A stretch of 64,000 bases of DNA from Candidatus Campbellbacteria bacterium GW2011_OD1_34_28 (lineage in GTDB: Bacteria; Patescibacteriota; Minisyncoccia; Phycocordibacterales; UBA12079), in the NCBI GenBank assembly GCA_001029775.1, contig CP011215.1, positions 123,187 through 187,186 on the forward strand. The letters run 5' to 3'. The position numbers and the translations under genes are program-made. Position 1 is the stretch's first letter. Each line of letters begins with the position of its first letter. The notes under the pieces are model-generated. The model ran no database searches. It saw nothing but the letters and a program-made list of their open reading frames with translations, and was not told the DNA's origin. Below, piece by piece: positions 11,112 through 44,593 of the stretch.

Positions 11112-11119
11112 ACGACACC

Positions 11120-12781: not shown

Positions 12782-12795
12782 ATTCATCATGTTTT

Positions 12796-13710
12796 TTAGA
12801 CTATCTGTTTTTTAGATTTCCAAAAGAAATATCCTACTACTCCAAAAGTTACAATCGGAGATACCCAAGCAGGAATATGAAAACCAAAACTATCCAAAAG
12901 CATAATAGTACCCAAAAACAAAATAGAATACATTGCCCCATTTTTCAAATAGATATATTTTTTAATTCTATCCATATTGCTTACTGTCATCTGACGCAAA
13001 ACCAAAGCGCCAATTCCGTTTCCTAAAACAATCAAAGGCACAGAAAGCGTAAAGGCAAACGCTCCTAAAACGCCATCCACAGAAAATGTTGTATCCAAAA
13101 CTTCAAGATAAAAAATCTTGCTCAAATCAGACATATTTCCTTTTCCTGCCACCAATCTTTTTTCTTCCAATTCTGCATTTTGTTTAAATCCATGAGTGAT
13201 AAAAAACGCGGTTGAACCGATGACTGCTCCAAATGCGAGCATCGGACTAATTTGCAAAGCAAACCAAACCACCACAGACAAAATAATAGAGACGACAGCA
13301 AAAAACCAAACTCCCTGAGCATGGAAAAACTTTTCTCCTTTCAAGCCATATTCTTTTGGTTCCAAAAACAACCAGTGAAAAAACAAAAAGATAAGAAATA
13401 TTCCGCCACCGATAAGTAAAATCGGTGCAGATTTTTCTACCGCTTCCAAAACAGCAGGGTCGCTACTAAATGTTGCCATCAATGCACCAATCGGTCCCAA
13501 CTCTGGCATCACCGCCCAAACAATAAGCCACGGCAACAAGCCTCTCACAACAACAACAGCAAACAAAAGCCCCCACAACAAAAACCATTTGCGGGCTCTT
13601 TGTGACATCGTAGAAAGAACCTCAGCATTAACAATAGCATTATCAACACTACTGATAATTTCAAACAAACAAAGTCCTGCGACTGTTAAAAGTATCGAGA
13701 AAAGAACCAT
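12796..13710 (-). CDS. DUF475 / TerC-family integral membrane protein.
   Basis: Multiple TM segments plus SSVDNAIVNA and SVDGVLGAF motifs characteristic of DUF475. Confidence 0.6.
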   Translation of the reverse strand: MVLFSILLTVAGLCLFEIISSVDNAIVNAEVLSTMSQRARKWFLLWGLLFAVVVVRGLLPWLIVWAVMPELGPIGALMATFSSDPAVLEAVEKSAPILLIGGGIFLIFLFFHWLFLEPKEYGLKGEKFFHAQGVWFFAVVSIILSVVVWFALQISPMLAFGAVIGSTAFFITHGFKQNAELEEKRLVAGKGNMSDLSKIFYLEVLDTTFSVDGVLGAFAFTLSVPLIVLGNGIGALVLRQMTVSNMDRIKKYIYLKNGAMYSILFLGTIMLLDSFGFHIPAWVSPIVTFGVVGYFFWKSKKQIV

Positions 13711-13713
13711 AAA

Positions 13714-20066: not shown

Positions 20067-20543
20067 GTGAAACCAAAAAGAGAGTTTGGACTTGTCCCTG
20101 TTTTGGTACAAATTGAAAGAACAGATTCTTTTATAAGAAATTACAAAGGTATGATTGTTCTTGGAGAAAAAATTATTTTCCATTTTGATGTATTAACAAC
20201 ACAAGACATCAGAGACTGCTCGGTAAAATTAAAAAATAATCTCAATATAGACAACAGACTCCTTTGTATGTCGATAGAAATTAAAAATTCTTCTGGAGAA
20301 AAGATTTTTCTCGACAAAATCAAGTATGATTTTTTTTACAACATTCTTGTTGATCACATTGGCCGACTTGAATATGATATTGAATCAGGTAATTTAAACA
20401 GACGACGCCCTTTAACAAGGCTGACAACCGACGGGTGGTTTAGCATCTATCCCTCCCGAGAGACAGACTGTTATACTTTGGCCATCTCTTCTAGAAAAAT
20501 TCCCCAGGATATTAAAGAGTGCGAGACACTTTTACTTACCTAA
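20067..20543 (+). CDS. Hypothetical protein with a GTG start.
   Basis: GGAGG lies 6 nt upstream of the GTG; no recognisable motif. Confidence 0.4.
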   Translation: MKPKREFGLVPVLVQIERTDSFIRNYKGMIVLGEKIIFHFDVLTTQDIRDCSVKLKNNLNIDNRLLCMSIEIKNSSGEKIFLDKIKYDFFYNILVDHIGRLEYDIESGNLNRRRPLTRLTTDGWFSIYPSRETDCYTLAISSRKIPQDIKECETLLLT

Positions 20544-22026
20544 CCCCTTCGGGGGTTTTTATTTTGGAAAAAAACAGAAAAACAAATAAATACGCAACCA
20601 CCATAAACCAAACAGAGAATGTTGGTATGTGAATTGAGGCAAAAGGCAAAGAAGAGAAAAAATCTACAATTTTTAATTCATAAGACAATAAAACATAAGC
20701 AATATAAGAAAAAGGCGCAGCGAGAACAGAAGAAAATAATCCCACTACAATACTCAAAAAACCAAATAACATTGTAAAAGGAATAAAAGTTAAAACAAGC
20801 AAATTGACAGGAACAGACACAACAGAAAAATCTCCCATCATATACAAAAGAAGCGGTAAAACAAAAATCTGAGTAGAAATGACGGAAACAAGGGATTCCT
20901 TTATTTTAAATTTTTCAGGAACAAGACTAAAATAATTTTCTATTTTAGGTGACAAAAAAATCAAACCAAATGTCGCCATAAAAGACAGCTGAAACGAAGC
21001 ATCAAAAACAAGTATTGTCGGGTTATGCAAAACCATCAAAAAACCCGCCAAGAAAAGTGTTCTTGTTATTTCATTTACCCTACCAGTTGCTCTCGCCAAC
21101 AAAACCAACAAAGCCATAACAGACGCTCTGACTATTGTGGCGGACGCTCCTGTCATTATTGCAAAAAATATAATACTTATGGCTCCGACAAAAACAGAAA
21201 GTAGCCCAGGCAAAAAAGAAAATAATCCCATTATGAAATCGGCGATAATAGTAATATTGTAGCCAGATAAAACCACGATATGTATCAAACCAACTTTACG
21301 GAAATCATCTTGCAGATCTTTTCCCAAAGATTCTTTCGCTCCAATAATCAGACCACTCAACAAAGATGAGTGCGGTTCGGGAAATATCTCTCTTGATTGT
21401 TCTATAAAAATATTTTTAACTCGAAACAATTTTTCTTTTATAAAGTTTCCATTACCCGAAGAAACAAATTTTGTTTTTGGATAAAAAATTTGATAATTTA
21501 TATTGTCTTTCGCCAGATAAGAAACATAATCAAATTGACGCTCTCCATCAGCATTAAAATTTTTTGGTTTATTTAAAATTCCACCAACTTGAATCAAGTC
21601 GCCATAATTGTATTGCGGGTACTGATCAACAATCGCAAGAATATTACTTTTTGTTTCTATTTCCTCTCCATTTAATTTATGTATTTTCAACTTTAATTGT
21701 GTATTGCTTTCTCTTGTGTCTGGTTCATCTATGACAAATGCATCAATAGAAACACTTTGATTTAAAAAATTGTTTAAGAAAGGTTCTGTTTTTTTAAAAT
21801 CTGTCAGATCAAACCTCCAGACGCCTATTCCTGCTGACAAAAATAAAAGACTTACAAAAATTATTTTTTCTTTTTCTTTCGGATTGCCCAAAAGAAAAAA
21901 CATAAAAATCGCCCAACTTATCAAAATCAAAAATAAATAAAATGTTTGCCCCAAATTAAAAAAGGAACAAAATGCTACACCAGAGATGAAACCAACTAAC
22001 ACTGAATATAAATAATTATCATTCAT
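20536..22026 (-). CDS. comEC: ComEC/Rec2 family DNA internalisation competence protein, channel domain only.
   Basis: Polytopic membrane protein containing VVLSGYNITIIADFIMGLF and other ComEC core signatures; 496 aa with no beta-lactamase-like domain. Confidence 0.8.
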   Translation of the reverse strand: MNDNYLYSVLVGFISGVAFCSFFNLGQTFYLFLILISWAIFMFFLLGNPKEKEKIIFVSLLFLSAGIGVWRFDLTDFKKTEPFLNNFLNQSVSIDAFVIDEPDTRESNTQLKLKIHKLNGEEIETKSNILAIVDQYPQYNYGDLIQVGGILNKPKNFNADGERQFDYVSYLAKDNINYQIFYPKTKFVSSGNGNFIKEKLFRVKNIFIEQSREIFPEPHSSLLSGLIIGAKESLGKDLQDDFRKVGLIHIVVLSGYNITIIADFIMGLFSFLPGLLSVFVGAISIIFFAIMTGASATIVRASVMALLVLLARATGRVNEITRTLFLAGFLMVLHNPTILVFDASFQLSFMATFGLIFLSPKIENYFSLVPEKFKIKESLVSVISTQIFVLPLLLYMMGDFSVVSVPVNLLVLTFIPFTMLFGFLSIVVGLFSSVLAAPFSYIAYVLLSYELKIVDFFSSLPFASIHIPTFSVWFMVVAYLFVFLFFSKIKTPEGVR

Positions 22027-28916: not shown

Positions 28917-30818
28917 TTATTCAATTTCTCGCCATGATTCTATCCCCCAACTACCACTCGGTCCCGAAGAAAAATTCATATTAGTTAGTCCCTGTTCGTA
29001 ATTTAAAATAATATTGTTTTTCAAATTCAATTGATCTCCAACCAAAGCCGTAATTGAAACATTGTTTGTCATTTCAATAATTCCGTAAGGAGCAACGAGA
29101 ATATCTGCATGAACATTATTACTTACATTAATTGCCGACACATCACTATTGCAGGTAGTAAATCCGTAATACTTGTCGCACCTTGCCAAGGACATCAACA
29201 TCAAATGCCCCGATCCTGATCTGGGATAATTCAAATCAACATTGTTATACAAATCAATCCAACCATCAGACAAAATTAAACCCGAACCGTTTGCTCCATA
29301 TCCAGCACCCAATTCAATGTTCGCGTCTCCATTTATTATTATATTTCCCAGCACATACAATGTCCCTCCTAAACTTACTGTTGTGTTTGATTCTATTATC
29401 AAATCCCCTCCAATTACTCCAGGACCGATTGTATCACCATCGTCCGCGGTTAAATCACCAGCTGTAATTGTTCCAAAACTAATCGCCTCATTTTTCCACG
29501 CTTCTATATTTGCTTCTGAAATAGGAGTTGGCAAATATGGAGGATCAACAGGAGGAGTGGTCGGAGAGTGGCTCGAACCACCAACATTACAATTTGTTTC
29601 AACATTATAATCCGCATCTCCATTTATAGTACAATTTGAGATACTGTTTGCGATTATATTTCCACCCACTGTCCCCCCAGAAAGAGAGTAAGTAAAAGCA
29701 TCTCCGCTAATTTGAGAATCTATTATGTTGTGTGCATAAGCATTAAATACTCCGCCCACACCATCTCCGACAATAACGGTATCTAATGTGCCAAGACCTT
29801 CTTCGTCAGTCGTCCACACTTTGAAATCAAGATCGCCTGCGACATTCACAAAAGCACTCTTTGTCCAATCGCTACTATACTTTGCTGAACCCAAAGAATA
29901 TCCCGCAGAAGTATCTATCCCCCACACATAGTAATTTGCGTCGTCTCTTGCCATATCAGCAACAATCCAATACAACTGATTTGCGTTAATTTCTGGATTG
30001 TTATTAAAACCAACATCAACATACGCATAATTTTCACTAATAAAACTTGAGAGGATTTCTCCTGTTGCTAAAATATTGTTTTTGTCGGGATTTCCACTTT
30101 TATCTTTTACTATTTTAATATTTAAATTTGCAGGCGAGCCAACCTTTTTTACATACAAAGAAATCTTTGACACTTGCAATTCACTTGTGGATGTTGCAAA
30201 ACTTTGTACGGCGTCTACTCGTTGCTGACCTCCCACATATCTACCAAAAGCAAAATCGTTATTTTGAACAATCCATTTCAAATTTGTCGTCGTTGCAGAA
30301 CGAGGTGCCACATAGACATCTCCTGCGATCATCACATTGCCAGCTCCTTCAATTGATCCATTTGAGTAAACTGATCCATTAATTCTGGTATTGTTTTCCA
30401 TTTCGATACCTCCTTGTCCTGTAAACAAACCGTAATTAAAGCTTACCCCACTTGTCACCTGAATCCTGCTTTTTATTTTTCTAATTTTATTATTTACATT
30501 TGCGGTCGTAACAACTTCTTTAACACCATTTCCCAAATCCGTCACGATTGTTCCTGCAGAACCATCATTCAGTAATATATTTTTTTGCCCAACAATATTT
30601 TCTCCGTTTTTTGTTCTATAGACGATATCTTCATTTCCACTTTCAGAAAGATAATAACTTTTTTTTGCCTCAAAAAGAATTCTGTTTGTTTTAAGTTGAC
30701 TAACAACAGGAGAAGAAATGATCATAATTAAAGAAGAGGAAACAAAGATAGCAAATAAAGCCACTAGTATAACAACTTGCCCCTCATTCTTTTTTCTCTT
30801 CAAGATTTTAGTAGTCAT
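28917..30818 (-). CDS. Large membrane-anchored, beta-helix-like (Gly/Asn/Thr-rich) protein co-oriented with the pilin genes; a putative pilus-associated adhesin or minor component.
   Basis: N-terminal TM (VVILVALFAIFVSSSLIMII), then 590 aa rich in G/N/T/S/D with repetitive GD..I.G.L stretches typical of parallel beta-helices. It lies immediately downstream of three prepilin genes. Confidence 0.5.
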   Translation of the reverse strand: MTTKILKRKKNEGQVVILVALFAIFVSSSLIMIISSPVVSQLKTNRILFEAKKSYYLSESGNEDIVYRTKNGENIVGQKNILLNDGSAGTIVTDLGNGVKEVVTTANVNNKIRKIKSRIQVTSGVSFNYGLFTGQGGIEMENNTRINGSVYSNGSIEGAGNVMIAGDVYVAPRSATTTNLKWIVQNNDFAFGRYVGGQQRVDAVQSFATSTSELQVSKISLYVKKVGSPANLNIKIVKDKSGNPDKNNILATGEILSSFISENYAYVDVGFNNNPEINANQLYWIVADMARDDANYYVWGIDTSAGYSLGSAKYSSDWTKSAFVNVAGDLDFKVWTTDEEGLGTLDTVIVGDGVGGVFNAYAHNIIDSQISGDAFTYSLSGGTVGGNIIANSISNCTINGDADYNVETNCNVGGSSHSPTTPPVDPPYLPTPISEANIEAWKNEAISFGTITAGDLTADDGDTIGPGVIGGDLIIESNTTVSLGGTLYVLGNIIINGDANIELGAGYGANGSGLILSDGWIDLYNNVDLNYPRSGSGHLMLMSLARCDKYYGFTTCNSDVSAINVSNNVHADILVAPYGIIEMTNNVSITALVGDQLNLKNNIILNYEQGLTNMNFSSGPSGSWGIESWREIE

Positions 30819-30841: not shown

Positions 30842-31384
30842 CTAATATATTTCTCTCATTACAACTGAATTATAAAAAGTCTCATTTCTTACGACGTCCT
30901 TTCTTTGAGAGGATAAATCTATTTCTATTTTAATCAATTTTGAAACACCCGTATCAACAAGATTTAAATAAAATTTGTCTACAGAAACACCTGGCAAATT
31001 GAGAGTGACTATATCAGCACCTTCCATCATTTTTAAATTGCCATCTTCCAAGAAAAATTTTTTCTCAGAAAAATTACCTGCGTCATCAACAACACTCAAA
31101 ACCAATGCCCCTAAGTCGCTATTAAAAACATTTCCAGAAACAGCCAACCCTCTGGACCATTTTGTTTCAACAACAACTCTTTCTAAAATACCAGAAGCAG
31201 TCTGATTAATTCTCTGCGACATTTTTATGTTGGAATAAGAATCAAACATCATCAGAGTTGTGTTTATCACAATGAACAAAACCAAAACTAAAACACCAAT
31301 GTAAATAAGAGTCTCTAAAAGAGAGAAGCCTTTCATTAATTTATTGTTCTTGATCAAATTTCTCTTAAACATAAATTTACTCAA
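30842..31384 (-). CDS. Prepilin-type N-terminal cleavage/methylation domain protein (pseudopilin or minor pilin).
   Basis: KGFSLLETLIYIGVLVLVLFIV matches G-F-[ST]-L-[IL]-E with a downstream hydrophobic helix. The start may be the internal MKGFSLLE. Confidence 0.7.
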   Translation of the reverse strand: MSKFMFKRNLIKNNKLMKGFSLLETLIYIGVLVLVLFIVINTTLMMFDSYSNIKMSQRINQTASGILERVVVETKWSRGLAVSGNVFNSDLGALVLSVVDDAGNFSEKKFFLEDGNLKMMEGADIVTLNLPGVSVDKFYLNLVDTGVSKLIKIEIDLSSQRKDVVRNETFYNSVVMREIY

Positions 31385-31853
31385 ACAAATTCGTCAAATA
31401 AAAATCAACGGTCTGTGTGGTTGTCGCTCCTGCTACAAATGTAGAGACAAAAGCACTCACTTTTCTTGTCCCATCATCCAAAGTTCCAGAGACGGCAATA
31501 TCTCCTCCCGCATCACGATAGACATCATCCAAAATAAAATACCTTTCAAATCTATTATCAATATAAATATTTGTTGTAGTGGCTTTCCAAATACCCCCCT
31601 CAAAAATTATTGAGTAATTAGTACTGGTTGCTAAATCATAAAAATTTGTCCAACTGGCATCCCTCAGAGATCTGACAACCTCTACCTCTTCTTCTAGTAA
31701 ATAATTTATTTTTGTAACATCCATATTTTTAACTGCCACTCTAATGAAAAAATTATAGGCAGTAACAACAGAAAAAAAAGAAACAGAAATAATTGACAAG
31801 CCAACCACAATTTCTATAAGACCAGCCCCTTTTTTGTTTTTAAAATTTATCAT
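31377..31853 (-). CDS. Prepilin-type N-terminal cleavage/methylation domain protein.
   Basis: KGAGLIEIVVGLSIISVSFF prepilin leader and helix. Confidence 0.65.
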   Translation of the reverse strand: MINFKNKKGAGLIEIVVGLSIISVSFFSVVTAYNFFIRVAVKNMDVTKINYLLEEEVEVVRSLRDASWTNFYDLATSTNYSIIFEGGIWKATTTNIYIDNRFERYFILDDVYRDAGGDIAVSGTLDDGTRKVSAFVSTFVAGATTTQTVDFYLTNLFE

Positions 31854-31857
31854 CTAA

Positions 31858-32328
31858 TTAATAGTTAGAAAAAATTGTTCCAATAGGAAAAACTGTTATT
31901 ATTTTGAATCTAACAGGATTATCAACCAAAGAAAATTTTAATGTTCCGCTTGTAACAGTATCGCCTGTAATTCTGTTAAAAACAACATCATTTCCACCTC
32001 CTACTAAAAATAATTCTGTTATTCTAACACCGTCACCAAACACAATTGTTTTATTATCGGGATCTGATTCAGAATAAAAACTTCCCACAAAAAAAGTTGC
32101 ACTATCTGTCTCAAAATGAACACCATAATTAGAAGCATCAGTGGAAGCTTGTGAATTTGTTCTTGCTAACTGAAGCATCTTTTCTACATCTTCAACGACA
32201 CGATTAAGGGCTTGTCTGTCTCTAACTGCTTCAAAAGGCTTTATTCCGAAAATAAAAAGCAATAAAATTATACCGATAGCAAAAAGGGTTTCTAATAAAG
32301 TTATTCCTCTTTTATCTTTTTTAAACAT
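31858..32328 (-). CDS. Type IV pilin / pseudopilin.
   Basis: KRGITLLETLFAIGIILLLFIFG is a canonical G-[FI]-T-L-L-E prepilin signature. Confidence 0.75.
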   Translation of the reverse strand: MFKKDKRGITLLETLFAIGIILLLFIFGIKPFEAVRDRQALNRVVEDVEKMLQLARTNSQASTDASNYGVHFETDSATFFVGSFYSESDPDNKTIVFGDGVRITELFLVGGGNDVVFNRITGDTVTSGTLKFSLVDNPVRFKIITVFPIGTIFSNY

Positions 32329-32375: not shown

Positions 32376-33590
32376 CTATATATTTCCCATTATAGAATAC
32401 ATCGGAGTAATCATTGATACCGCAAAAAATCCAACAGCCGCTCCAATAAATACCATCAGTATTGGCTCAATGATTGTAGAAAGATTTTTTGTTTTTTGAT
32501 CTACTTCTTCTTCATAAAAATCGGCAAGGCTTGATAACATATCTGGCAACTTTCCTGTTTCTTCCCCCACTTCAATCATGGCACTAACTACGGGCGGATA
32601 AAGTTTTTCATTTTTTGTAAACAATTCAGCCAAAGGATCTCCTTTTTGAATATTTATTTTTGCTTGATCCATAATTTTTTTATAATGACTATTTTGCAAA
32701 ACATCTTTTGTAATATCAAAAGATGAAAGAACATCTACTCCAGAAGAAAGAAGCGAAGAAAGAGTTCTCGCTGTTCTGGCAGAGTTAACCTCGACTGCGA
32801 TTGTCGACACAAAAGGTATTTTCAAAACAAGAGTGTCAATAAGTTTTCTTCCCCTTTCTGTTTTAAAACCTAAAACTATTCCGACAATAGCGATTATGCC
32901 CATTAAGACAAACAGTAATGGGTTGCCTCTTATAAAATCACTGGCGCCAATAATAATTCTCGTACTCATTGGAAGTTCAGTATTTAAATCCGCGAATGTC
33001 TCTTGTAGCCCCGGAACAATAAATACCAACATCAGTACTCCGACAGAAATCATAACAAATGTAATTATTGCGGGGTAAATCAATGCCCCTCTCACTTTCT
33101 TTGCCAGTTTATTACTGTTTTCCATCTGTTTCGAAACAATATGCAAAGAATCAGAAATCCTTCCACTTTCTTCCCCTGCCCTAACCATAGCGATAAACAA
33201 CGGTGAAAAAATATTTGGATATTTTTTTAATGATTCATTGATCGCATTTCCTTTTTTTATCTCTTCATTGATATCTATGATTGCATTTTTAAATTTTCGA
33301 TTTTTAAACTGCTTTTCCAAAGTACTCAATGCTTTTGAGATAGAAAGTCCTGCACCTATCATCGCACCCAAGTTTTTCGCAAACATTATTTTATCTTCAG
33401 CTTTTACTGTGCTAATAAGGGACATTTTTCTAAGCAAAAACATTATTGATTTTCCTTGTTGTTCAAAATCGACAACAACACCCCCTTGAGAGCGAACTTT
33501 TTTTGCCAAATCCTGTTCATCCTTTGCAAAAACAACCCCCTTATAGGTTTCTCCTGTTTCTCTTATTGCTTTGTAATTATAATCAGGCAC
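32376..33590 (-). CDS. pilC: Type IV pilus assembly platform protein PilC (GspF family).
   Basis: Two GspF repeats with conserved EESG..S and EVGEETGKL motifs and three TM regions; 404 aa. Confidence 0.85.
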   Translation of the reverse strand: MPDYNYKAIRETGETYKGVVFAKDEQDLAKKVRSQGGVVVDFEQQGKSIMFLLRKMSLISTVKAEDKIMFAKNLGAMIGAGLSISKALSTLEKQFKNRKFKNAIIDINEEIKKGNAINESLKKYPNIFSPLFIAMVRAGEESGRISDSLHIVSKQMENSNKLAKKVRGALIYPAIITFVMISVGVLMLVFIVPGLQETFADLNTELPMSTRIIIGASDFIRGNPLLFVLMGIIAIVGIVLGFKTERGRKLIDTLVLKIPFVSTIAVEVNSARTARTLSSLLSSGVDVLSSFDITKDVLQNSHYKKIMDQAKINIQKGDPLAELFTKNEKLYPPVVSAMIEVGEETGKLPDMLSSLADFYEEEVDQKTKNLSTIIEPILMVFIGAAVGFFAVSMITPMYSIMGNI

Positions 33591-33655: not shown

Positions 33656-35404
33656 TTACTCTGAAACCACCCTCAACACCTCTTCAATCGTCGTTACCCC
33701 CTGAACCGCTTTAAAAATTCCATCTTCAATCATTGTCATCATTCCCTCGTTTTTTGCTTGTTCTTCAATCTGGTCAGATGTTGCATTTTTCATAATCAAA
33801 TCTTTCAGAGGGGTACTCATATTCAAAATCTCATGGATACCAATTCTTCCACTATATCCGTCAGAGTCAGCATTTTTATTGTTTTTATAAAAAGCAATTT
33901 TTGCCCAATCATCTTTTGCATCGACGATACTTTCTTTTTTCAAAAAATAAAGTACTCTATCCAAATCAACAACTTTATTTAAAGAGACAATCTCTGATTT
34001 TGATAGGTAATATTTTTGACTATCTTGTGACAGACGACGCACAAGTCTTTGTGCAATAATAACATCAATTGTAGAAACTAAAAGAAACGGGTCAATTTTC
34101 ATATCAACCAATCTGGGAATTGCGCCAGCTGCCGAATTGGTGTGCAAAGTAGAAAGCACCAAGTGACCCGTCAAAGAAGCATTCACCGCAAGAGACGCAG
34201 TTTCGGTATCTCTAATTTCCCCCACCATTATAATATCTGGGTCCTGACGAACAAGAGCACGAAGTCCATTTGAAAATGTAAAACCAATATCAGGCTTTAC
34301 TTGTGTTTGGTTAACTCTCGGCATTTGATATTCTATTGGATCTTCAATCGTAGAAATATTAACACCAGGTACATTTAAATTGTCCAACAATGTATAAAGA
34401 GTTGTGGTTTTTCCAGAACCTGTCGGACCTGTTGTAAGAAGCATTCCTGTTTTACGTTTCATGGCATTGTATATTCTTTCCAACCCTTCTCCGTGGAAGC
34501 CAAGACTTTCCAAGGTAAAGCCCGAAGCTCCTTCTTTCAGCAACCTCATAACTGTTTTTTCTCCGTAATAAACAGGTAAAACGGAAACTCTAAAAGAAAC
34601 TTTTTGCTCGTCAACTTCTACTTTAAATCTACCATCTTGTGGCAATCTTTTTTCATCCAGTTTTAAATTGGAAAGCACTTTTATTCTAGCGGTGATACTG
34701 GCTGTTGCGTTTTTTGGCAAAATCATTGCGTCATGCAAAATACCATCTATTCTGTAACGAATAAGTAATTTGTCTTCCATCGGTTCTATATGAATATCTG
34801 ATGCGTCTTGAATAATCGCGTGTTTCAAAAGAGTATCGACGATACGAATAACTGGCAAATCTTCGGCGATCTTTTTCAAATCTTCTTTTGAAATATTTTC
34901 TGTTTCAACTTCTGAAATTTGTTTCAGAGACTGAGATTGTTTTTGGATCAAATCTCCAAATTCTGCTTTTAAAGATTTTTGATATTGTAACAGAGCACTT
35001 TTTATTGATGCCGTACCGGTCAAACGAGGAGAAATTTTTAAATTTACTTTCTTTTTTATAAAGTTGATAGCTTCAAGATCGTCAACATCAAGCATCGCAA
35101 CCTCCAAATCTTTATCACTTTTTTTGAAAGCAATAATATTGTGCTTTCTGGCAATCGGTTCCGGTATAATAGACAAAACATCAAAATCAATTTTTTGATC
35201 TGACAAATCAACAAAAGGAATACCAATAATATGGGCCTGAATTCTGCGCATTTCATCCTCTGTCAATTTTCCTTCGTTAAGCAAAATTTCACCAAGACTG
35301 ACATTTTCTTTTTCTGCTTTTGACAAAGCCTTTTCCAAATCTGTTTTAGAAATAAGTCCGGAGTCTTTTATAAATTCACCTAATTGTTTTGAATCAATTC
35401 TCAT
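33656..35404 (-). CDS. pilB: Type IV pilus assembly ATPase PilB (GspE family) with an N-terminal GSPII_E_N domain.
   Basis: Walker A TGPTGSGKTTT, Asp box, His box (LVLSTLHTN), and a tetracysteine-less CPR-style C-terminus; 582 aa. Confidence 0.9.
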   Translation of the reverse strand: MRIDSKQLGEFIKDSGLISKTDLEKALSKAEKENVSLGEILLNEGKLTEDEMRRIQAHIIGIPFVDLSDQKIDFDVLSIIPEPIARKHNIIAFKKSDKDLEVAMLDVDDLEAINFIKKKVNLKISPRLTGTASIKSALLQYQKSLKAEFGDLIQKQSQSLKQISEVETENISKEDLKKIAEDLPVIRIVDTLLKHAIIQDASDIHIEPMEDKLLIRYRIDGILHDAMILPKNATASITARIKVLSNLKLDEKRLPQDGRFKVEVDEQKVSFRVSVLPVYYGEKTVMRLLKEGASGFTLESLGFHGEGLERIYNAMKRKTGMLLTTGPTGSGKTTTLYTLLDNLNVPGVNISTIEDPIEYQMPRVNQTQVKPDIGFTFSNGLRALVRQDPDIIMVGEIRDTETASLAVNASLTGHLVLSTLHTNSAAGAIPRLVDMKIDPFLLVSTIDVIIAQRLVRRLSQDSQKYYLSKSEIVSLNKVVDLDRVLYFLKKESIVDAKDDWAKIAFYKNNKNADSDGYSGRIGIHEILNMSTPLKDLIMKNATSDQIEEQAKNEGMMTMIEDGIFKAVQGVTTIEEVLRVVSE

Positions 35405-35504: not shown

Positions 35505-38500
35505 CTAAAACTCTATTACCCGTGAATCACAATCTGCCGGACAGCTCAAAAAGTTTTCGTTTGCATCGCAAGTTGTGTTTCCACAACAATCCGCAAAACA
35601 ACTTCCTATCTCACCTGGAGAACAAATATCGTCTCCACAACCACTAGTCAAATGTTCGGCCGTACAAGTGTCAGTAGACAAAGTCCCCTGACAATTCCAA
35701 GTAGCACTATTTCCGGCAGTAGGGAAAGCGGGAGTAAGATTTTTTATTCCTCCCAAACACCAACCATTGGATGGGTCTTGCCAATTTGTTTCTTCCAACA
35801 AATAATCTCTTTCATTTACTCCGCAATCCCCGTCTCCGGTTGGAATAGCTGAACGAGTTGCTGAACAACTTGCAGATCCTAGGCCCATTTGACACGCCCA
35901 ATTTGAAACACCACCTCTAGCTGGGAAAGACACGGGGTTTGGATTTGGATTAAATGCTGTAGTCTCTATTAAACACCAATTTCCAGCAGGCCATGACAAA
36001 GTCTCGTAAGAAAATGCTCTTGCCAAAGTTCCACAGTCAACATCACAGGTTCCTGGCATACATCCGCCCGGACCTTGGCGGTTAGCTGTACAAGTAACAG
36101 AGTCTCCTCCGTTCACACAAGACCACGAAGCTGTAGAATTCATTACAGGGAAACTTGTCGGCGTACCACTTCCGGTTCCAAACTGACACCAAGTGCTTCC
36201 TGTTGGCCATGCGGTTTCTGTTGAAAGATAAGTTCCTGCTCGATAAGTGTCTCTAGTTCCGCAACCAACAGTTGGAGGAGTATCTCTATAAGCAGAACAA
36301 TTTGCTATTGATTCATAAAAATTACATTTCCACGTTACCATCTCTCCCTGATCGGGGAATTTCGCTGATGGAGAAAAAGTTTCTTCCGTTCCGTTGTCAC
36401 ACCATGTGCTTCCAACGGGATAATCTGTTGTTGAATAAGTATATGTTCCGTCTTTAGTTCCACACTCACCTTCTCCAACAGGAAGTGCCGCACGAGAAGC
36501 CGAACAACTTGCGTTCGTTGCTCCGGTACCAGAACCATTACAACTCCAAGAAACAGTTTGTCCATAATTAGGAAATAACGGAGAAGCAGAATTTGTTCCC
36601 GTCGTACAATAAGCAGATCCTGCTGGCCATGCTGTTGTCGTTATAGGATAAGGAGGAGCAACAGTCGTCGAATAATTGTCTGATCTATTTCCGCAAGATC
36701 CATTTAAAGGAAGTCTGGAAGCAGAACAACTTGCATTTGTTCCGCCGTTTATTCCAACACATGTCCAGGAAACACTGGCCCCCAAACCTGGAAAAGCGGG
36801 GCTAGTGCTGTTTGTTCCAAGTGAACAATATGCAGTAGATGCTGGCCAAGCGGTTGTCGTCGCAGGATAAGGGGGAGCAACAGTCGTCGAATAATTGTCT
36901 GATCTGTTTCCGCAAGTAGCATTTGTTGTTTGTAATACTTTTAAATATTTGACCAGAGAACTATTTGTAGCTGCCATTTGATAACAAGGACAAAGAGTTC
37001 CGTTTGAAGCAGCTACTTGTTTTGCAAAATCATTAGGTATTGCTACAAAAGAAGTGGTATGAGTACACGCCAGACAAACATATGATCCAGAAGAGAGTGT
37101 CTGAAAATCATAGCTGTCGCCGTAATACCTTGCAAACAAACCAGAATAAGTCACAGTATGATTTCCGACAGTCCTTGGTCCGAAATTTTTAGTTGTATAA
37201 GCGGTTGACCTCAAAACCCACAAGTGAATAGCAACAGCGGCATTTGGGTTTTGGGTATTTATAATAATATATTGCCAATTATTTGCATCTATCTTTACCG
37301 CACCCTGCATATAACTGATGCTGTTATTACAGACATTCCATGTCAGTTTCATAGAGGCTTGTACATCATCTATAGAATAATAAACATAACGACTGTCAGC
37401 ACTATCATAAGAACGATATCCTGTCATATCATAGACAATCGTAACTGTATCAGTAAGAAAAGAACCCCCAGGATTCCACGAAACTGTAGTTGCTTCTACG
37501 CTATTTCCGCCAAAAAAGATTCCGAACCCTAATAAAAAAACTGCCATAAAAAATTTTACGCCAATTTTTTTTAAATAAATAGCAATTCCAGCAAGGACAA
37601 TAACACCAATTAAAACATAGATTGCCCAGCCAAAAGATTTGTCTTCTTTTGTCTCAACATAAAAAATATTTTCATCCAAAACATTTCCTTCTGCATTCTT
37701 AACCTGAGCCTTGATTACAGGATTTTTACAATCCCTCAAAGAAACAATTTCCATATTTAACACACCACTATCGGCTTTGATTTCTTTTTCTCCACACAAT
37801 CTATCAAAAACACCTGTTGTGATAGAAACAAAAGCAAACAACTCTTGTTGTTGTTGATCTCGGACTCTGGCATCCAAAAAGTTTTGGGCACTTCCTGACA
37901 GAACAAAAGTAATATTTATTTTTTCGTCTTCTTTGTATGAATCCTTGTCCAAACTTACATTCTGAACAGTTGCTGATTCTCCTCTTATAACAAAGTGCAG
38001 CGGAATCATATTAGATAAATTATTACCTAATTTATTTTGCAAAATTAAATCACCGTCGTATGCCTGAGGTTTTTCGGGCAAAGGAACATCCAATTCCAAT
38101 GTTTTTGTTTCTCCTGCAAGTAATTCAACTTCTGGAAACTTTTTTTCTTCAACTGACTGTCCAAAAGAACTCCTTTCTCTAATATTTATAACAGGAATAA
38201 AAGAAATTTTATTTTGAGAACTATTAACAATATCACATTCCATAACAGGACTTTCTGTCGATCTATCTATATCAATTCCCTGATTTACAGCGAACAATTC
38301 TTCTCCGATCTTCAATTTACAACTAAAAGGATTAATCAAAAGTCCTCCATCTCCATCAATATTTACCATGCCAAAAGAAACAAATCCATAATCAAGACCT
38401 TTTTCGTTTCCAGAGGATACAATTATTTCAAACTCTCCTTTCAAATTTGAAGGTGCTGTATATTTAATCTCTTTTACAATATCTTCCCCCGTATTTAGGC

Positions 38501-38831
38501 TAAATACATCCTCATAATATTGTTTATGAACTGGAAATCCATTTTTATCAACCAATTCAACAACATATTTTATCTGAGGCTGAACATCACCATGATTTAC
38601 AATATTAAAAGACAGGCCAAAATCATTTTTGTCTTGTCTTAAAATTTTTCCATCATACAAACTAATGTCAGCCAAAATGACAAATTGTCCACTTGAAACA
38701 TCTATTCCACTCTCTATCATCTGGTCAAGAACAAAGTCCGGAATTTCTACTGGTAATTCTTCTGCGTTAGTGACGAAAACAGAGGAAAAAAACATTAACA
38801 CGAACAAACAAAAAGAGACTATTTTTTTCAT
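35505..38831 (-). CDS. Giant surface protein P1 (1108 aa). Layout: signal peptide, an N-terminal domain of about 400 aa, a tight pair of TM helices (WAIYVLIGVIVLAGIAIYL-KKIGVK-FFMAVFLLGFGIFFGG), at least six copies of a roughly 60-aa four-Cys repeat, and a conserved C-terminal module CG.TTCDANENFLSCPADCDSRVIEF.
   Basis: Read from the ORF translation. The repeat consensus is CG.R...Y...ET.WP.GS.WC..GT....FP..G....W.C......C.A.R. Confidence 0.7.
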   Translation of the reverse strand: MKKIVSFCLFVLMFFSSVFVTNAEELPVEIPDFVLDQMIESGIDVSSGQFVILADISLYDGKILRQDKNDFGLSFNIVNHGDVQPQIKYVVELVDKNGFPVHKQYYEDVFSLNTGEDIVKEIKYTAPSNLKGEFEIIVSSGNEKGLDYGFVSFGMVNIDGDGGLLINPFSCKLKIGEELFAVNQGIDIDRSTESPVMECDIVNSSQNKISFIPVINIRERSSFGQSVEEKKFPEVELLAGETKTLELDVPLPEKPQAYDGDLILQNKLGNNLSNMIPLHFVIRGESATVQNVSLDKDSYKEDEKINITFVLSGSAQNFLDARVRDQQQQELFAFVSITTGVFDRLCGEKEIKADSGVLNMEIVSLRDCKNPVIKAQVKNAEGNVLDENIFYVETKEDKSFGWAIYVLIGVIVLAGIAIYLKKIGVKFFMAVFLLGFGIFFGGNSVEATTVSWNPGGSFLTDTVTIVYDMTGYRSYDSADSRYVYYSIDDVQASMKLTWNVCNNSISYMQGAVKIDANNWQYIIINTQNPNAAVAIHLWVLRSTAYTTKNFGPRTVGNHTVTYSGLFARYYGDSYDFQTLSSGSYVCLACTHTTSFVAIPNDFAKQVAASNGTLCPCYQMAATNSSLVKYLKVLQTTNATCGNRSDNYSTTVAPPYPATTTAWPASTAYCSLGTNSTSPAFPGLGASVSWTCVGINGGTNASCSASRLPLNGSCGNRSDNYSTTVAPPYPITTTAWPAGSAYCTTGTNSASPLFPNYGQTVSWSCNGSGTGATNASCSASRAALPVGEGECGTKDGTYTYSTTDYPVGSTWCDNGTEETFSPSAKFPDQGEMVTWKCNFYESIANCSAYRDTPPTVGCGTRDTYRAGTYLSTETAWPTGSTWCQFGTGSGTPTSFPVMNSTASWSCVNGGDSVTCTANRQGPGGCMPGTCDVDCGTLARAFSYETLSWPAGNWCLIETTAFNPNPNPVSFPARGGVSNWACQMGLGSASCSATRSAIPTGDGDCGVNERDYLLEETNWQDPSNGWCLGGIKNLTPAFPTAGNSATWNCQGTLSTDTCTAEHLTSGCGDDICSPGEIGSCFADCCGNTTCDANENFLSCPADCDSRVIEF

Positions 38832-38962
38832 AATATTATTAATATTCAGTTTATCTTTATAATAATTAATACTAACACCTCGTAAATAAAAAAAATATAA
38901 GCACTGTGAACAACTAAAAAGAGCGGGTTTCCTTACGGAAACCCGCTCTTTTTTAAAACTTG

Positions 38963-41791
38963 TTAAAATTCAATAATTTTTGATCCACAATCCAAAGGAC
39001 AATTCAAGAAATTCTCGTTTGAATTACATGCATTGTCTCCACAGAAAGAATTTTCATTATCTATTGGTTCTCCACAATCTTGAGGACAAAGACTACCCTC
39101 TCCTTGTTCACAAACATTGTTTTCACATTCTGGCTCACAATCTTGCGGACAATTATTAGCATTTTCCCCAGATCCACAAATATAATCTGTTCCACATCCT
39201 TCTGGACAATTTTCAGAACATCCAAGACGACAATCTGTTCCACAATCTCCAGCATTTTCAGTCATACAATTATTACTACATCCATCTCCACTGTTTGTGT
39301 TTCCGTCATCACACTGTTCTTGTCCTTCCTTTACCCCATTTCCACAGACAGCATTTCCTGCTCCTCCTTCAATAGCACAAACACTGCTACATCCGTCCCC
39401 ACTATTTGTGTTTCCATCATCACATTCTTCACCTGTATTTAATGTTCCGTTTCCACAATTTACGCTGACATTTGTCCTAATTGCCGAACAACTCGCGATT
39501 GTTCCCCCATTTCCCGCACATCTCCAATTTGCTGTTTGGCCGGGCAAAGGAAAGGCTGGTGCTGTAAATACCGTTTCCAAAGAATTAGATCCTGTTGAAT
39601 TTATAGGAGTTCCAACCTTACACCACGCACTGCCTGAAGGCCAAGTAGTTTCTGTTGCCAAATAAGTTCCTTTTCTCTGAGCATTTCTTATTCCACAGTC
39701 GCCGTTGGTTACGATAGGTACACTAGGTACATTAGCTCTAGTTGCAGAACAAGTATCTCCCAATCCGGTTCCCTGAGGAATTGGCAAACAACTCCACCAA
39801 ACTGTCTGTCCTGGGTTTGGGAAACTTGTCGGAGTTCCTGAAGGAGTCCCCAATTTACACCAAGCACTGCCAGATGGCCAAGCGGTTTCTGTTGCCAAAT
39901 AATTTCCTTCTCTCTGAGCATTTCTTGCTCCGCAATCCCCGGGCAAGTTACAACTTACTGAACGACTAAGTGTTCCTATCAAAACGTCTATTAGACACAT
40001 CGATCCATTTGCGACAGGTAATCCCTGACACATATCTCCGATTCCAGGTCTTGGACAACAGTGACATCCGTTTTGGGTAAATTTTGCTGTTGCAGAAATA
40101 ACAGTCGGACTAGTTGAGATTGTTTTTACAACTCTGTGTACTCTGGTTGGATTTGCTTCATGTCCATAATCAATAATACTGATACCACCAGCATTGTCAG
40201 TTATCTTTGCTTGCAAACCATTTACACAAGCCCCACAAACCACTCTTAGCGTAACATCCATTATTGCAGTTCCTCCACAAGTCGGAGTAACAGGTTCTCT
40301 AGACACCCAAAATGTTGTTGTGGGAATACCTCCTCCACACATACAAAGAGCTTCTGTCTTTTGATAATCACCAAAGAACAAAATTCCAGGAAGAAATACG
40401 ATCATAATCATCACTGCTAAATCAATTTTCCCTTTTCTTTTTAAATAAACAAAAATTCCTATCAAGACAATTAACAATCCAATCAATATATACATGTCAT
40501 AACTTTTTACTCCATACTTTTTGAAATATTTGATATCCATACTGTAACTATCCAAAACATCCCCTGTCTTTGTATCTTTGATCACCAGATTCATTTCTTT
40601 TAATTTTGTTCTTTGAGAAACAGCGTCATCAAAAATAATTTTTCCTCCATATTCATCCAAAGAAACTTCTTTTGAAAAAGTTTGATCAAATCCCCAACTT
40701 CCAGTCAAATGCAATTCTGCCGTAACAGAATTTCCCTTTCCGTTGATTGAAACAACCTCAGCAGAAATTTCTAGCTTTTCACCATTCTTGTAATAATTTC
40801 TTCCTGAATCAACACTCATAATACGAGCAATCAACTGACCATATTCAACCAACCATCTCAAATTTCTTGTAAACAAATATTCATCTTCATCATTAATCAA
40901 AGAAAATTTTATTTCAAAAGGACCTCCTTTTTTCAAAACCTCATTGCCAGCAGTATCAATTTCTACAAAAAGAGAATCTTGCCCATCAACAACCTTTCTT
41001 GAAAGATCACCTTTTGAAGAAACAATCAGTTTCTTTTCCCCCAAAGTGTCATATATATCCATTTCGTATTTCATCACCTTTGAAGATTTTACATAAGCAT
41101 CCACTCCAGCATTTTCACCTAATGGAATCAAAATAAGAGGTTTGTCTTCTGGTGTAGTAGAAAGTCCCACCATAGGTGCTGTTTTTCCATAAGTGGTTGT
41201 ATAGAAATACATTTTTATTCCGGAAAGTCTTCCTCCTGTTCCGTCTAGTAGAATAGGTTCTTCTATGAAATCAACATTTTGAAATTTTAAATTTTTGTCA
41301 TTAACAAAAACTTGAACAAAATAATTTCCTGTCTCAATATTTTTAGGAACATCAATAGACAAGATTTTTGTTTGAACGGCATTAGGAGCAAGTTTTCCCA
41401 AGTTTTTTACTTCTTGATATGTGTGTTCTGTCGTTGAAAAAATATATCCTTCTGTAGCCAATGCTTCTCCTCTTCTTATTTCAACTACATATTCCAGATC
41501 ATCCAAAAAATTGGCTGTATTATTTTTGATATCTGTTTGAACACTCAATTTTCTGTTCGCTTGATCAAAAGAAATATCTTTTATTTTCAATTCTACTTCG
41601 GGAATATAAGGAACTGTTTCCCCTGCATAGTTTACAGTAATACCTTCTACATCATCGCCAAAACTATTTTCTTCGGCGACTGCATCCACAACGGGAGAAT
41701 CTCCTTCCACAGCAAAAAGCTGTGTCCCAAAACTGACCATTCCTGAAAGGAAAATGGCCAACATCAAAAACTTAACAAATGTTGATTTCAT
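38963..41791 (-). CDS. Giant surface protein P2 (942 aa), a paralog of P1 with the same layout: signal peptide, N-terminal domain, TM pair (YILIGLLIVLIGIFVYL-KRKGKIDL-AVMIMIVFLPGILFFG), four-Cys repeats, Myxococcus-type cysteine-rich repeats (CGNG...GEECDDGNTNSGDGCS..C, twice), and the C-terminal module CGDNACNSNENFLNCPLDCGSKIIEF.
   Basis: Read from the ORF translation. The C-terminal 25 aa are nearly identical to those of P1. Confidence 0.7.
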   Translation of the reverse strand: MKSTFVKFLMLAIFLSGMVSFGTQLFAVEGDSPVVDAVAEENSFGDDVEGITVNYAGETVPYIPEVELKIKDISFDQANRKLSVQTDIKNNTANFLDDLEYVVEIRRGEALATEGYIFSTTEHTYQEVKNLGKLAPNAVQTKILSIDVPKNIETGNYFVQVFVNDKNLKFQNVDFIEEPILLDGTGGRLSGIKMYFYTTTYGKTAPMVGLSTTPEDKPLILIPLGENAGVDAYVKSSKVMKYEMDIYDTLGEKKLIVSSKGDLSRKVVDGQDSLFVEIDTAGNEVLKKGGPFEIKFSLINDEDEYLFTRNLRWLVEYGQLIARIMSVDSGRNYYKNGEKLEISAEVVSINGKGNSVTAELHLTGSWGFDQTFSKEVSLDEYGGKIIFDDAVSQRTKLKEMNLVIKDTKTGDVLDSYSMDIKYFKKYGVKSYDMYILIGLLIVLIGIFVYLKRKGKIDLAVMIMIVFLPGILFFGDYQKTEALCMCGGGIPTTTFWVSREPVTPTCGGTAIMDVTLRVVCGACVNGLQAKITDNAGGISIIDYGHEANPTRVHRVVKTISTSPTVISATAKFTQNGCHCCPRPGIGDMCQGLPVANGSMCLIDVLIGTLSRSVSCNLPGDCGARNAQREGNYLATETAWPSGSAWCKLGTPSGTPTSFPNPGQTVWWSCLPIPQGTGLGDTCSATRANVPSVPIVTNGDCGIRNAQRKGTYLATETTWPSGSAWCKVGTPINSTGSNSLETVFTAPAFPLPGQTANWRCAGNGGTIASCSAIRTNVSVNCGNGTLNTGEECDDGNTNSGDGCSSVCAIEGGAGNAVCGNGVKEGQEQCDDGNTNSGDGCSNNCMTENAGDCGTDCRLGCSENCPEGCGTDYICGSGENANNCPQDCEPECENNVCEQGEGSLCPQDCGEPIDNENSFCGDNACNSNENFLNCPLDCGSKIIEF

Positions 41792-43711: not shown

Positions 43712-44593
43712 TTATTTTCTATTTTTGCCAGCCGAGAGTATCACCGGCATATAGTAACTTATGTTTTTTCGTGCATCCTTGGTGGCTGCACACTGGGCTG
43801 TTGTTCCGTCGCTTTGAATGCAAACCCAGGAGACACTTTTCCCTGGTTCGGGAAACGGTGGTGTTTCTTCGGACGAACCGAATTTGCACCAAACACTGTC
43901 CGACGACCACTCCGTCTCGTGTGTGGCATAGGAAGTCGCCCGATCCCCACATTCAGCGGGTGGAGTGTAAATTTTAACAGTCGGATCTCCTCCAAGCTGT
44001 GCACATCCCGTGTCAACACACTCGGGAAACATCAGCCCAGCATTGTTGAATGCATCCCCCACCATATTCCCATTACCAAGTCCGTTAAGAATCTCGGTTA
44101 TAAAAGGAAGTGAGTGATTCAAACAATCAAGACATGTCGGAGATGCCAAATCGACAAAACCGACTATCGCCTTTGCTGTAGAAGCAAATGTCCCCGGACC
44201 TTCGGCGTTCATGGTAGTACAACCATAAGCAATAAGAAGGTCAGACGGAGGAAGAGCCGTTGCCGGAATCCATGTCGTATCGCAGGTCGTCTTGAAATCA
44301 TCAGGCCCAGCACTATGCCCAGCGTTAAAAACAAACGACGCACCGCCCTCAGGGACGGAAGACAAAATGGTCTGCTCATCCGGACCGACAAGGACCGTCT
44401 TGGGCGAACCAATTTTGTCTGCAAAAAGTTCCGCTTCCTGTTTGAAAGGCCACCACAACTCCGAACATTCGGATGTGTTGGGATCAAGAGCAACTGCAGA
44501 TATGATATAGCTGTTTCCAACTACTTCCCCAGACACTGCGACCCCATAAGAGAGGGTCAGAAAAATGAAAAACAACAATCCTATTTTTTTCAC
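43712..44593 (-). CDS. Secreted protein P3 (293 aa) with an N-terminal domain containing NAGHSAG and YGCTT motifs and one C-terminal copy of the four-Cys repeat (ECGDRATSYATHETEWSSDSVWCKFGSSEETPPFPEPGKSVSWVC...C); noticeably GC-rich.
   Basis: Signal peptide MKKIGLLFFIFLTLSYGVAVSG. Repeat identity to P1/P2. Several shadow ORFs in other frames over this region are by-products of the high GC. Confidence 0.6.
   Translation of the reverse strand: MKKIGLLFFIFLTLSYGVAVSGEVVGNSYIISAVALDPNTSECSELWWPFKQEAELFADKIGSPKTVLVGPDEQTILSSVPEGGASFVFNAGHSAGPDDFKTTCDTTWIPATALPPSDLLIAYGCTTMNAEGPGTFASTAKAIVGFVDLASPTCLDCLNHSLPFITEILNGLGNGNMVGDAFNNAGLMFPECVDTGCAQLGGDPTVKIYTPPAECGDRATSYATHETEWSSDSVWCKFGSSEETPPFPEPGKSVSWVCIQSDGTTAQCAATKDARKNISYYMPVILSAGKNRK

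Follow-up and report, generated by a model that had tools for sequence, protein, structure and literature searches.

We analysed a window of 64,000 nucleotides (nt) from Candidatus Campbellbacteria bacterium GW2011_OD1_34_28, a candidate phyla radiation (CPR) bacterium (contig CP011215.1, positions 123,187 to 187,186 of the forward strand). The subject is a pair of adjacent genes encoding two large putative surface proteins, P1 (1108 amino acids, aa) and P2 (942 aa), in which an internal segment reads as a second signal peptide, placed between an N-terminal half ('N-half') and a C-terminal half ('C-half') with four-cysteine repeats. An earlier reading, made from the sequence alone (the sequence-only reading), had described P1 and P2 as adjacent, co-directional and directly upstream of pilB and pilC, and the open reading frames (ORFs) bear this out to the nucleotide (Table 1). 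With a PilB-type ATPase and a PilC-type platform protein beside prepilin genes, the downstream genes qualify as a type IV pilus cluster. Three prepilins had been read downstream of pilC: all three proteins do have N-termini of prepilin type (KGITLLETL, KGAGLIEIV and KGFSLLETL), but an N_methyl match was obtained for only one, and it was weak. The gene order from P1 and P2 into the pilus genes is the same in a sister Candidatus Campbellbacteria genome, where the orthologue of P1 (P0001) is 93% identical and that of P2 is 939 aa long.

A probable internal signal peptide in place of a membrane hairpin

In addition to an N-terminal segment resembling a signal peptide, P1 and P2 each have two internal hydrophobic segments, here called TM1 (for transmembrane, TM) and helix 2, separated by a short basic loop, KKIGVK in P1 (residues 421 to 426) and KRKGKID in P2 (451 to 457). 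These elements, taken by the sequence-only reading as a TM hairpin, are indeed present; helix 2, however, reads as an internal signal peptide and not as a permanent anchor. Substrates of Sec export and signal peptidase I were recognised by a basic n-region, a hydrophobic h-region of 7 to 20 residues and a small-x-small site (positions -3 and -1) soon after it. Helix 2 has all of these in both P1 (VEA↓T, the arrow marking the predicted cut) and P2 (TEA↓L).

Relatives were then considered. Word-indexed homologue searches had a low yield (two matches for P1, two for a profile of the P1-type N-half, none for the repeat profile); their candidate lists were probably swamped by low-complexity and TM words. 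Relatives were obtained instead from an exhaustive hidden Markov model (HMM) search with the repeat profile, and from locus scans of species-representative genomes and metagenomes, the query of the scans being a 5-sequence subset of a diverged 14-sequence alignment. The layout of signal peptide, N-half of about 400 aa, two hydrophobic segments and repeats was found in 23 proteins (21 among the top matches, plus P1 and P2). In all 23, helix 2 is preceded by a K/R-rich stretch, has an h-region of 14 to 22 aa and is followed by a small-x-small site 3 to 8 residues past the hydrophobic core, for example VEA↓T, TEA↓L, AKA↓D or ASA↓A. In 35 of 35 distinct fused proteins from the locus scans, helix 2 is likewise followed by an AxA-type site, which often reads xKA↓DTF; for 10 of these proteins the site was read by eye, since the script had landed on a chance match in mature sequence (5), reported no site (1) or missed the hairpin (4). 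Among the 17 invariant columns of the 14-sequence alignment (39% mean column identity) are A23 and A447, at position -1 of the N-terminal signal peptide and of the internal site respectively, and the hydrophobic core of helix 2 is shorter than that of TM1 (17.0 versus 19.8 residues, p = 8e-5).

At seven independent loci (L006, L019, L023, L045, L047, L057 and L058), the gene is split precisely at helix 2. The first gene encodes the N-half, TM1 and a basic tail, then stops; the second, on the same strand after a gap of -41 to +36 nt, begins with Met, a helix-2-type signal peptide and AxA. For L019 and L023, the mature N-terminus encoded by the second gene (DTF...LDKS.Y..GE) is homologous to the sequence that follows helix 2 in fused forms. 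This alternation, which places helix 2 at the N-terminus of separate genes, shows helix 2 to be a signal peptide, and the two halves to be able to function as separate polypeptides. Cleavage in fused forms such as P1 and P2 is the natural inference; the mature C-halves would start at T448 in P1 (TTVSWNPGGSF...) and at L482 in P2 (LCMCGGG..., LCMCGGGIPTTTF...).

A family of four-cysteine repeats

The C-halves carry a repeat of about 60 aa with four cysteines, and the copy numbers in the sequence-only reading, six in P1 and at least two in P2, were recovered as six (C640...C1056) and two (C620...C768). A further copy, which that reading had missed, lies in P3, a third secreted protein of the window. 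The eight copies of P1 and P2 share invariant columns C, G, C, FP, W, C, C and A, and all nine copies of the window fit the pattern G-x-C-G-x(5)-Y-x(~13)-C-x2-G-x(~8)-F-P-x2-G-x4-W-x-C-x(~8)-C-x-A-x-R. The exhaustive search covered 1.84 billion cluster representatives; 796 of them matched at E<=1e-3 and 286 at E<=1e-10, and single proteins held as many as 25 copies. The best 150 matches gave 470 full-length copies in 149 proteins; the four cysteines are invariant in these copies, and positions G, Y, G, FP, G, W, A and R are nearly so.

That the repeat is not a named domain held up, since searches of Pfam, NCBIfam and PDB sequences gave no match even at E<=10. An AlphaFold2 model built on 73 diverse copies (predicted local distance difference test, pLDDT, 87.8; pTM 0.71) consists of a short helix and four strands, and a fold search with it against the PDB found no match. 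We conclude that the four-cysteine repeat is a real, unnamed domain family without a recognisable solved fold. One member, P0007, belongs to Minisyncoccus archaeiphilus, a cultivated species.

The two Myxococcus-type cysteine-rich repeats that had been read in P2 are also genuine: residues 778 to 810 and 815 to 842 match TIGR02232 with 66.4 bits against a cut-off of 20.8, and PF13948 (DUF4215) with a score of 35.2 against 27. The same HMMs gave no match on P1.

Two side observations concern the reach and the surroundings of the repeat family. P0014, a repeat protein of 815 aa with a C-terminal TM anchor and a basic tail, is labelled 'uncultured archaeon', and the repeat may therefore not be confined to CPR bacteria; DPANN archaea, for instance, may have it too. 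Beside the repeat protein P0010, the intervals 9425-9856 and 11046-11423 of locus L024 have RVT_3/RNase_H and bAvd/23S_rRNA_IVP Pfam matches; a diversity-generating retroelement might lie near this surface protein.

P1 and P2 are old paralogues

The AlphaFold2 model of the N-half of P1, a confident one (mean pLDDT 82), shows three beta-sandwiches followed by two helices drawn as a helical hairpin. A fold search with the N-half of P1 returned generic strings of immunoglobulin (Ig), fibronectin type III (FN3) and macroglobulin domains only, with TM-scores of about 0.2, and no functional conclusion was drawn from it. Among the top 150 repeat matches, 16 relatives have an N-half of the P1 type (N1) and three of the P2 type (N2). 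The two types have no similarity detectable by phmmer. By profile-profile comparison (hhalign), they align over 387 columns with a probability of 97%, E = 6e-11 and 18% identity. Since the N-halves are homologous by profile comparison though undetected by phmmer, P1 and P2 are, on this evidence, old paralogues.

L032, L033 and L062 each hold two N1-family genes in tandem, with identical tails within the pair in L033 and L062. These pairs mirror the arrangement of P2 and P1, and local duplication in this family is recurrent. In L015 (CAWINY010000007.1, a 1.5 Mb contig labelled Acidobacteriota), positions 9881-12985 hold a fused N1-family gene with the internal site APAAKA↓DTF. Its neighbours are a recombinase-like gene, by reading of its N-terminal sequence (7842-9443, minus strand), and a prepilin-like gene of 479 aa; horizontal transfer, a mobile element or a mislabelled bin could account for it. 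Finally, in one assembly of the sister population (L004, 1895-4707), the P2 orthologue is called as two genes of 165 and 746 aa, which is either a frameshift or a strain-level disruption of the N2 half.

Variability between strains

Between the window and the sister genome, divergence in P1 is uneven: the N-half, hairpin and middle region are 98 to 99% identical, the repeats 86% and the tail module 79%. This pattern fits a C-terminal part that would be exposed, diversifying and ligand-binding. P3 varies as well. Its neighbours in the window are nusA and a gene of 242 aa, while its counterpart in the sister genome (L001, 13370-14257, -) lies between P1 and pilB, on the opposite strand. The two are 48 to 62% identical amid neighbouring genes at 93 to 99%; because of this and of the different position, P3 is a relocated, fast-evolving or paralogous gene. 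The idea that P3 is a clan-CD-like protease is a speculation: a His/Cys pair in its N-domain (...NAGHSAG... and ...AYGCTTM...) was found by reading only, and Pfam, NCBIfam and PDB sequence searches were empty.

A recurrent motif at the C-terminus

The last 25 residues of P1 and P2 had been described as nearly identical and as a distinct conserved module. The first statement failed: 16 of the last 26 residues are identical (62%). Among all 26-column windows of the alignment this ranks in the top 1%, a level also attained within the repeats. The second held in part. Most of the tail is the last of several motifs of about 19 aa, CGxxxCxxxENxxxCPxDC (two in P1, three or four in P2), and the part that is enriched at C-termini is the terminal (V/I)IEF. 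Across the family this corresponds to an end motif Phi-x-E-Phi, usually W/F/Y-x-E-V/T/I-x-P or Phi-x-E/Q-F, located at the extreme C-terminus and preceded by unrelated domains, Cys-knot modules included. The strict form Phi-x-E-[VTI]-x-P ends 17 of 154 proteins, compared to 0.07 expected, and the loose form ends 20 of 23 hairpin proteins, compared to 18 of 130 other repeat proteins (Fisher, 7e-12). The C-halves of split pairs also bear it (...SYIEQ, ...TFQTF and ...IFQEF).

P1 and P2 share the IEF variant despite N-halves only 18% identical, whereas N1-type relatives in other lineages end in WxEVxP. The tail therefore tracks lineage and not N-half type, which argues for a shared partner. Ten C-terminal modules of diverse members gave no match at E<=10 in NCBIfam, nor did the seven of them searched in Pfam, and, unlike known CTERM signals, no family C-terminus has a hydrophobic helix after the motif.

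In L022, the interval 11949-14230, which separates the N1-family gene from pilB, encodes two further secreted proteins of 310 and 430 aa, ending in ...KKPIFTEF and ...KKPIFIEF. Such loci seem to gather proteins with the tail. It was also considered whether tail proteins without an N-half are always the C-halves of split N1 pairs. This was not confirmed for P0010, whose upstream gene encodes a C-terminally anchored ectoprotein that is not N1-like.

Linkage with pilus genes

Linkage was scored at the approximately 18 independent loci with a flank of at least about 5 kb. At seven of them, pilB and/or pilC lies within 10 kb, always on the same strand: the window together with the sister genome, L011, L014, L022, L038, L039 and L052. 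The closest case is L038, at 45 nt downstream, and the ORFs between the N1 gene and pilB in L052 resemble pilM/N/O by inspection. Prepilin-like genes also flank L005, L008 and L015. Moreover, a prepilin N-terminus is present in 14 of the top 150 repeat proteins; the two that were looked up are named prepilin-type proteins of Paceibacterota. The linkage with pilus genes, from which the sequence-only reading had suggested a pilus-coupled apparatus, is thus significant but facultative: it recurs well beyond the window, and it is not universal.

Gene order and other features of the window

The features of P1, P2 and their neighbours are collected in Table 1. The window is AT-rich, with a GC content of about 31 to 44%. 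At 20536-22026 on the minus strand, some 7 kb past the pilus cluster, there is a gene for a ComEC-type competence channel (PF03772 and DUF4131), so that DNA uptake is a further possible role, additional or alternative, of the pilus beside P1 and P2. ARAGORN called a tRNA-Ile, anticodon TAT (UAU), at 11536-11609 on the plus strand. This tRNA is uncommon in bacteria, where AUA is usually read by a modified CAU tRNA.

Table 1. Positions of P1, P2, P3 and the adjacent pilus genes in the window, with the parts of P1 and P2
Feature	Position (nt)	Strand	Basis or remark
P1 precursor gene, 1108 aa, N1-type	35505-38831	-	ORF; 93%-identical orthologue P0001
P2 precursor gene, 942 aa, N2-type	38963-41791	-	ORF; N2 half homologous to N1 half
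pilB-type assembly ATPase	33656-35404	-	PF00437 (T2SSE), E 3e-121, and PF05157 (MshEN)
pilC-type platform protein	32376-33590	-	PF00482 (T2SSF), E 4e-59
Three prepilin-like genes	31858-32328, 31377-31853, 30842-31384 (span 30842-32328)	-	N-terminal G/F-x-x-x-E motifs
633-aa membrane-anchored protein, last of pilus cluster, ends ...SWREIE	28917-30818	-	
P3, secreted, 293 aa; single four-Cys repeat at aa 212-272 (nt 43778-43960)	43712-44593	-	
P1 N-terminal Sec signal peptide, aa 1-23, ...VTNA↓E	38763-38831	-	A23 invariant in family alignment
P2 N-terminal Sec signal peptide, aa 1-27, ...QLFA↓V	41711-41791	-	Hydropathy and sequence reading
P1 N-half, three beta-sandwich domains (aa ~56-158, 164-282, 288-391)	37638-38762	-	AlphaFold2, mean pLDDT 82
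P2 N-half ectodomain, aa 28-432, probably three beta-sandwiches	40496-41710	-	Beta-sandwiches by N1 homology
P1 TM1, predicted stop-transfer anchor, aa 399-420	37572-37637	-	
P2 TM1, predicted stop-transfer anchor, aa 433-450	40442-40495	-	Weak LPXTG-anchor-type match to TM and basic part only
P1 predicted internal signal peptide, aa 421-447: KKIGVK, 16-aa h-region, c-region NSVEA↓T	37491-37571	-	
P2 predicted internal signal peptide, aa 451-481: KRKGKID, 17-aa h-region, c-region DYQKTEA↓L	40349-40441	-	
P1 middle region, aa 448-636, start of predicted released C-half	36924-37490	-	
P2 middle Cys-containing region, aa 482-616, start of predicted released C-half	39944-40348	-	Conserved within N2-type relatives only
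P1 four-Cys repeats, six, aa 637-1060	35652-36923	-	
P2 four-Cys repeats, two, aa 617-772	39476-39943	-	
P2 Myxococcus-type cysteine-rich repeats, two, aa ~773-845	39257-39475	-	TIGR02232, DUF4215, pappalysin-2 match
P1 end, aa 1061-1108: short Cys motifs, two, then ...DSRVIEF	35508-35651	-	
P2 short Cys motifs (C..C...E....CP.DC) and terminal ...GSKIIEF, aa 846-942	38966-39256	-	

A proposed mechanism and its alternatives

We consider it probable that P1 and P2 are precursors cut into an anchored stalk and a free adhesin C-half, the latter docked by its tail on a shared surface partner, plausibly the pilus. The N-terminal signal peptide would start Sec export, and the N-half with its three beta-sandwich domains would cross the membrane until TM1 stops transfer. 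The basic loop of 6 to 7 residues would stay in the cytoplasm, and the second hydrophobic segment, acting as an internal signal peptide, would restart export of the C-half. Signal peptidase I would then cut after VEA447 in P1 and TEA481 in P2, leaving a membrane-anchored stalk and a free extracellular C-half composed of four-cysteine domains (with the Myxococcus-type repeats in P2) and ending in VIEF (P1) or IIEF (P2). This C-half would be the variable, ligand-binding adhesin part, and its terminal motif a short, strand-like docking signal holding it on the shared surface partner. The most plausible partner would be found in the adjacent type IV pilus, as one of its minor pilins or tip components, the model for this being the strand complementation between PilY1 and PilX; the anchored N-half is another candidate. 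The best reading of the P1/P2 system is a host or cell-attachment module, possibly docked on a pilus.

Several observations weigh against this proposal. Some internal signal sequences escape cleavage (PMC2114505). About 11 of the 18 loci have no pilB or pilC nearby, so pilus coupling is not obligatory at the level of gene order. The end motif also occurs in repeat proteins that have neither an N1 nor an N2 half, such as P0010. Tail-like ends are found in 4 of 77 ORFs of the window, all four in a cluster of eight genes, which speaks for the pilus link: P2, P1, the third prepilin (...VVMREIY) and the 633-aa protein (...ESWREIE; hypergeometric, 5e-5). The ends of the prepilin and of the 633-aa protein, however, are called on a loose 4-residue pattern with a background rate of 2.5%, and they do not recur on pilins of the other pilus-linked loci. 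Lastly, a promoter and terminator scan of the window gave counts no higher than in shuffles and was uninformative; therefore no operon claim is made, and co-transcription of P1 and P2 with the pilus genes is possible.

One alternative, which appears somewhat unlikely, is that these proteins are general envelope- or S-layer-associated adhesins with no tie to the pilus, the adjacency to pilB and pilC having arisen by chance in particular lineages and the end motif being no more than the final beta-strand of the domain before it. The loci without nearby pilus genes are in its favour, among them the syntenic pair of L006, which adjoins nusA, and CPR genomes are known to encode many large cysteine-rich extracellular proteins (PMC4736985). 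The seven same-strand linkages nonetheless far exceed expectation, on the assumed background that about 2 to 4% of a genome of about 1 Mb lies within 10 kb of pilB or pilC. Furthermore, the fusion of the repeat to prepilin N-termini in 14 of 150 relatives speaks for a pilus tie, and the motif follows contexts that are not strands, such as Cys-knot modules.

Helix 2 might instead form with TM1 a permanent, uncleaved TM hairpin within a single polypeptide, with both large domains outside and the tail as a docking or sorting module. The two helices and the short basic loop are there, AlphaFold draws them as a hairpin, and the escape of internal signals from cleavage has been described (PMC2114505). 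Such a hairpin would have no use for an AxA-type site; nevertheless position -1 does not vary and the c-region is conserved in every relative. Helix 2 is also of signal-peptide and not of TM length. At seven loci this segment opens a gene of its own, as an N-terminal signal peptide, and the C-half works there as a free secreted protein. We regard the permanent hairpin as unlikely. Overall, the observations of the sequence-only reading were confirmed and its interpretation was supported in part, the main correction lying in the biogenesis.

Alternatively, Phi-x-E-Phi(-x-P) could be a true sorting signal. A dedicated protease or transpeptidase (compare sortase, PorU and exosortase), for which P3 is a possible candidate, would then join the C-half to the wall or S-layer by a covalent bond, with no part played by the pilus. 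In favour of this stand the strong enrichment of the motif at the extreme C-terminus, after unrelated domains and tracking lineage, and the place of the P3 counterpart in the sister genome, with P1 and pilB on either side. A TM helix after the motif, though, is part of all curated C-terminal sorting signals known to us. Here there is none, NCBIfam and Pfam gave no match at E<=10, P3 has no detectable protease homology, and no candidate sorting enzyme was identified in the window; a covalent sorting signal is accordingly quite improbable. That the split loci arose from fused genes through frameshift errors in sequencing or assembly, and so are silent on signal-peptide function, is hardly credible: the ORFs of L006 do overlap by 41 nt and metagenome assemblies do hold such errors, but the seven loci come from different lineages and assemblies with widely differing gaps, each has its own Met, n-region and proper stop after the basic tail, and the ORFs do not overlap in L045 (36 nt apart) or L047 (2 nt apart).

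Relation to known systems

The closest precedent for the proposed docking is provided by the PilY1/PilC tip adhesins. These are likewise large, Sec-exported non-pilins encoded with minor pilins and pilus assembly genes, and they combine a variable adhesive part with a conserved part that docks on the tip minor pilin by beta-strand complementation (PMC13190605), an organisation to which P1 and P2 may be likened. The PilY1 beta-propeller PF05567 gave no Pfam match in P1 or P2 at E<=1. Unlike PilY1, P1 and P2 have as candidate docking element a C-terminal motif of 4 to 6 residues, they possess an additional anchored N-half and the putative internal signal peptide, and their host is a CPR bacterium, taken to be monoderm-like.

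Large cysteine-rich extracellular proteins of CPR bacteria (Peribacteria) have been proposed to mediate attachment (PMC4736985), and this general class is therefore already in the literature. P1 and P2 resemble it in being large, signal-peptide-bearing and strain-variable, with weak similarity to Myxococcus repeats and pappalysin (PMC4736985). That description is generic and defines neither the four-cysteine repeat nor the predicted internal signal peptide with its fused and split forms, nor the end motif. The bona fide Myxococcus repeats are two copies making up a minor part of P2, with none in P1, and, unlike MYXO-CTERM proteins, neither protein has a hydrophobic sorting domain.

The N-half, especially in split forms, is comparable to the WxL-interacting proteins (WxLIP) of Firmicutes (DUF916/DUF3324), in which a signal peptide precedes Ig-like ectodomains and a TM anchor with a basic tail closes the C-terminus. 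WxLIP_HBD (PF11797) matched residues 64 to 169 of P2 below threshold (20.6 bits against a cut-off of 28.9), and no WxL partner genes were seen. As a sortase substrate, P2 gave a similarly sub-threshold match over TM1 and KRKGK (12.7 bits against 15.9); it has no LPXTG and its true C-terminus is hydrophilic. Of the curated C-terminal sorting domains (PEP-CTERM, GlyGly-CTERM, MYXO-CTERM, PGF-CTERM, T9SS CTD and others), recognised by an HMM match and, save for the T9SS CTD, by a hydrophobic helix after the motif, the ends of P1 and P2 have no feature, and their N-terminal signal peptides are ordinary Sec-type ones, without the class III motif G↓F-x-x-x-E or an N_methyl match. Judged by these matches, P1 and P2 are not members of the PilY1 family, pilins, or substrates of sortase or CTERM systems.

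For the proposed processing, the likeness is with the structural polyproteins of flaviviruses, in which the signal peptidase of the endoplasmic reticulum (ER) cuts at internal signal sequences. There too, an internal signal with a small-x-small site comes after a stop-transfer helix, and one translation product yields an anchored part and a lumenal or extracellular part; the flavivirus case is that of a eukaryotic virus and the ER enzyme, whereas P1 and P2 are bacterial. No natural bacterial surface-protein family of such a polyprotein design was found described in the literature searched, nor was a prior description of the repeat, of the internal-signal-peptide architecture or of the end motif, the coverage of this literature being incomplete.

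Significance

All CPR (Patescibacteria) bacteria cultivated to date are obligate episymbionts (PMC12206443), and host attachment in Saccharibacteria requires type IV pili (PMC9894109, PMC12206443). The P1/P2-type family is widespread in CPR, and its presumed function makes it a concrete candidate for what CPR pili or cell surfaces present to the host: it offers a cysteine-rich half, variable between strains and probably adhesive, recurrent links with pilus genes, and a repeat that is sometimes fused to pilins. An internal signal peptide, combined with genes that are either fused or split, amounts to a simple and testable rule of biogenesis, and experiments should be possible in Minisyncoccus archaeiphilus, the host of P0007. 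The four-cysteine repeat merits a Pfam or NCBIfam model, hundreds of large proteins that contain it being now unannotated, and the short C-terminal motif could serve to list the remaining surface- or pilus-associated proteome in any CPR genome.

A broader version of the proposal is more doubtful, and we put it forward tentatively. P1 and P2 would represent a CPR-wide and hitherto undescribed design of host-attachment device, a polyprotein cut by signal peptidase I whose adhesin, with a new disulfide-stabilised fold, is loaded through Phi-x-E-Phi(-x-P) on the pilus, its tip or the stalk, by a signal shared with many secreted proteins of the same genome. If true, the polyprotein and docking reading would define, for episymbiotic bacteria of ultra-small size, a new domain family together with a C-terminal signal for sorting or docking that forms a class of its own.

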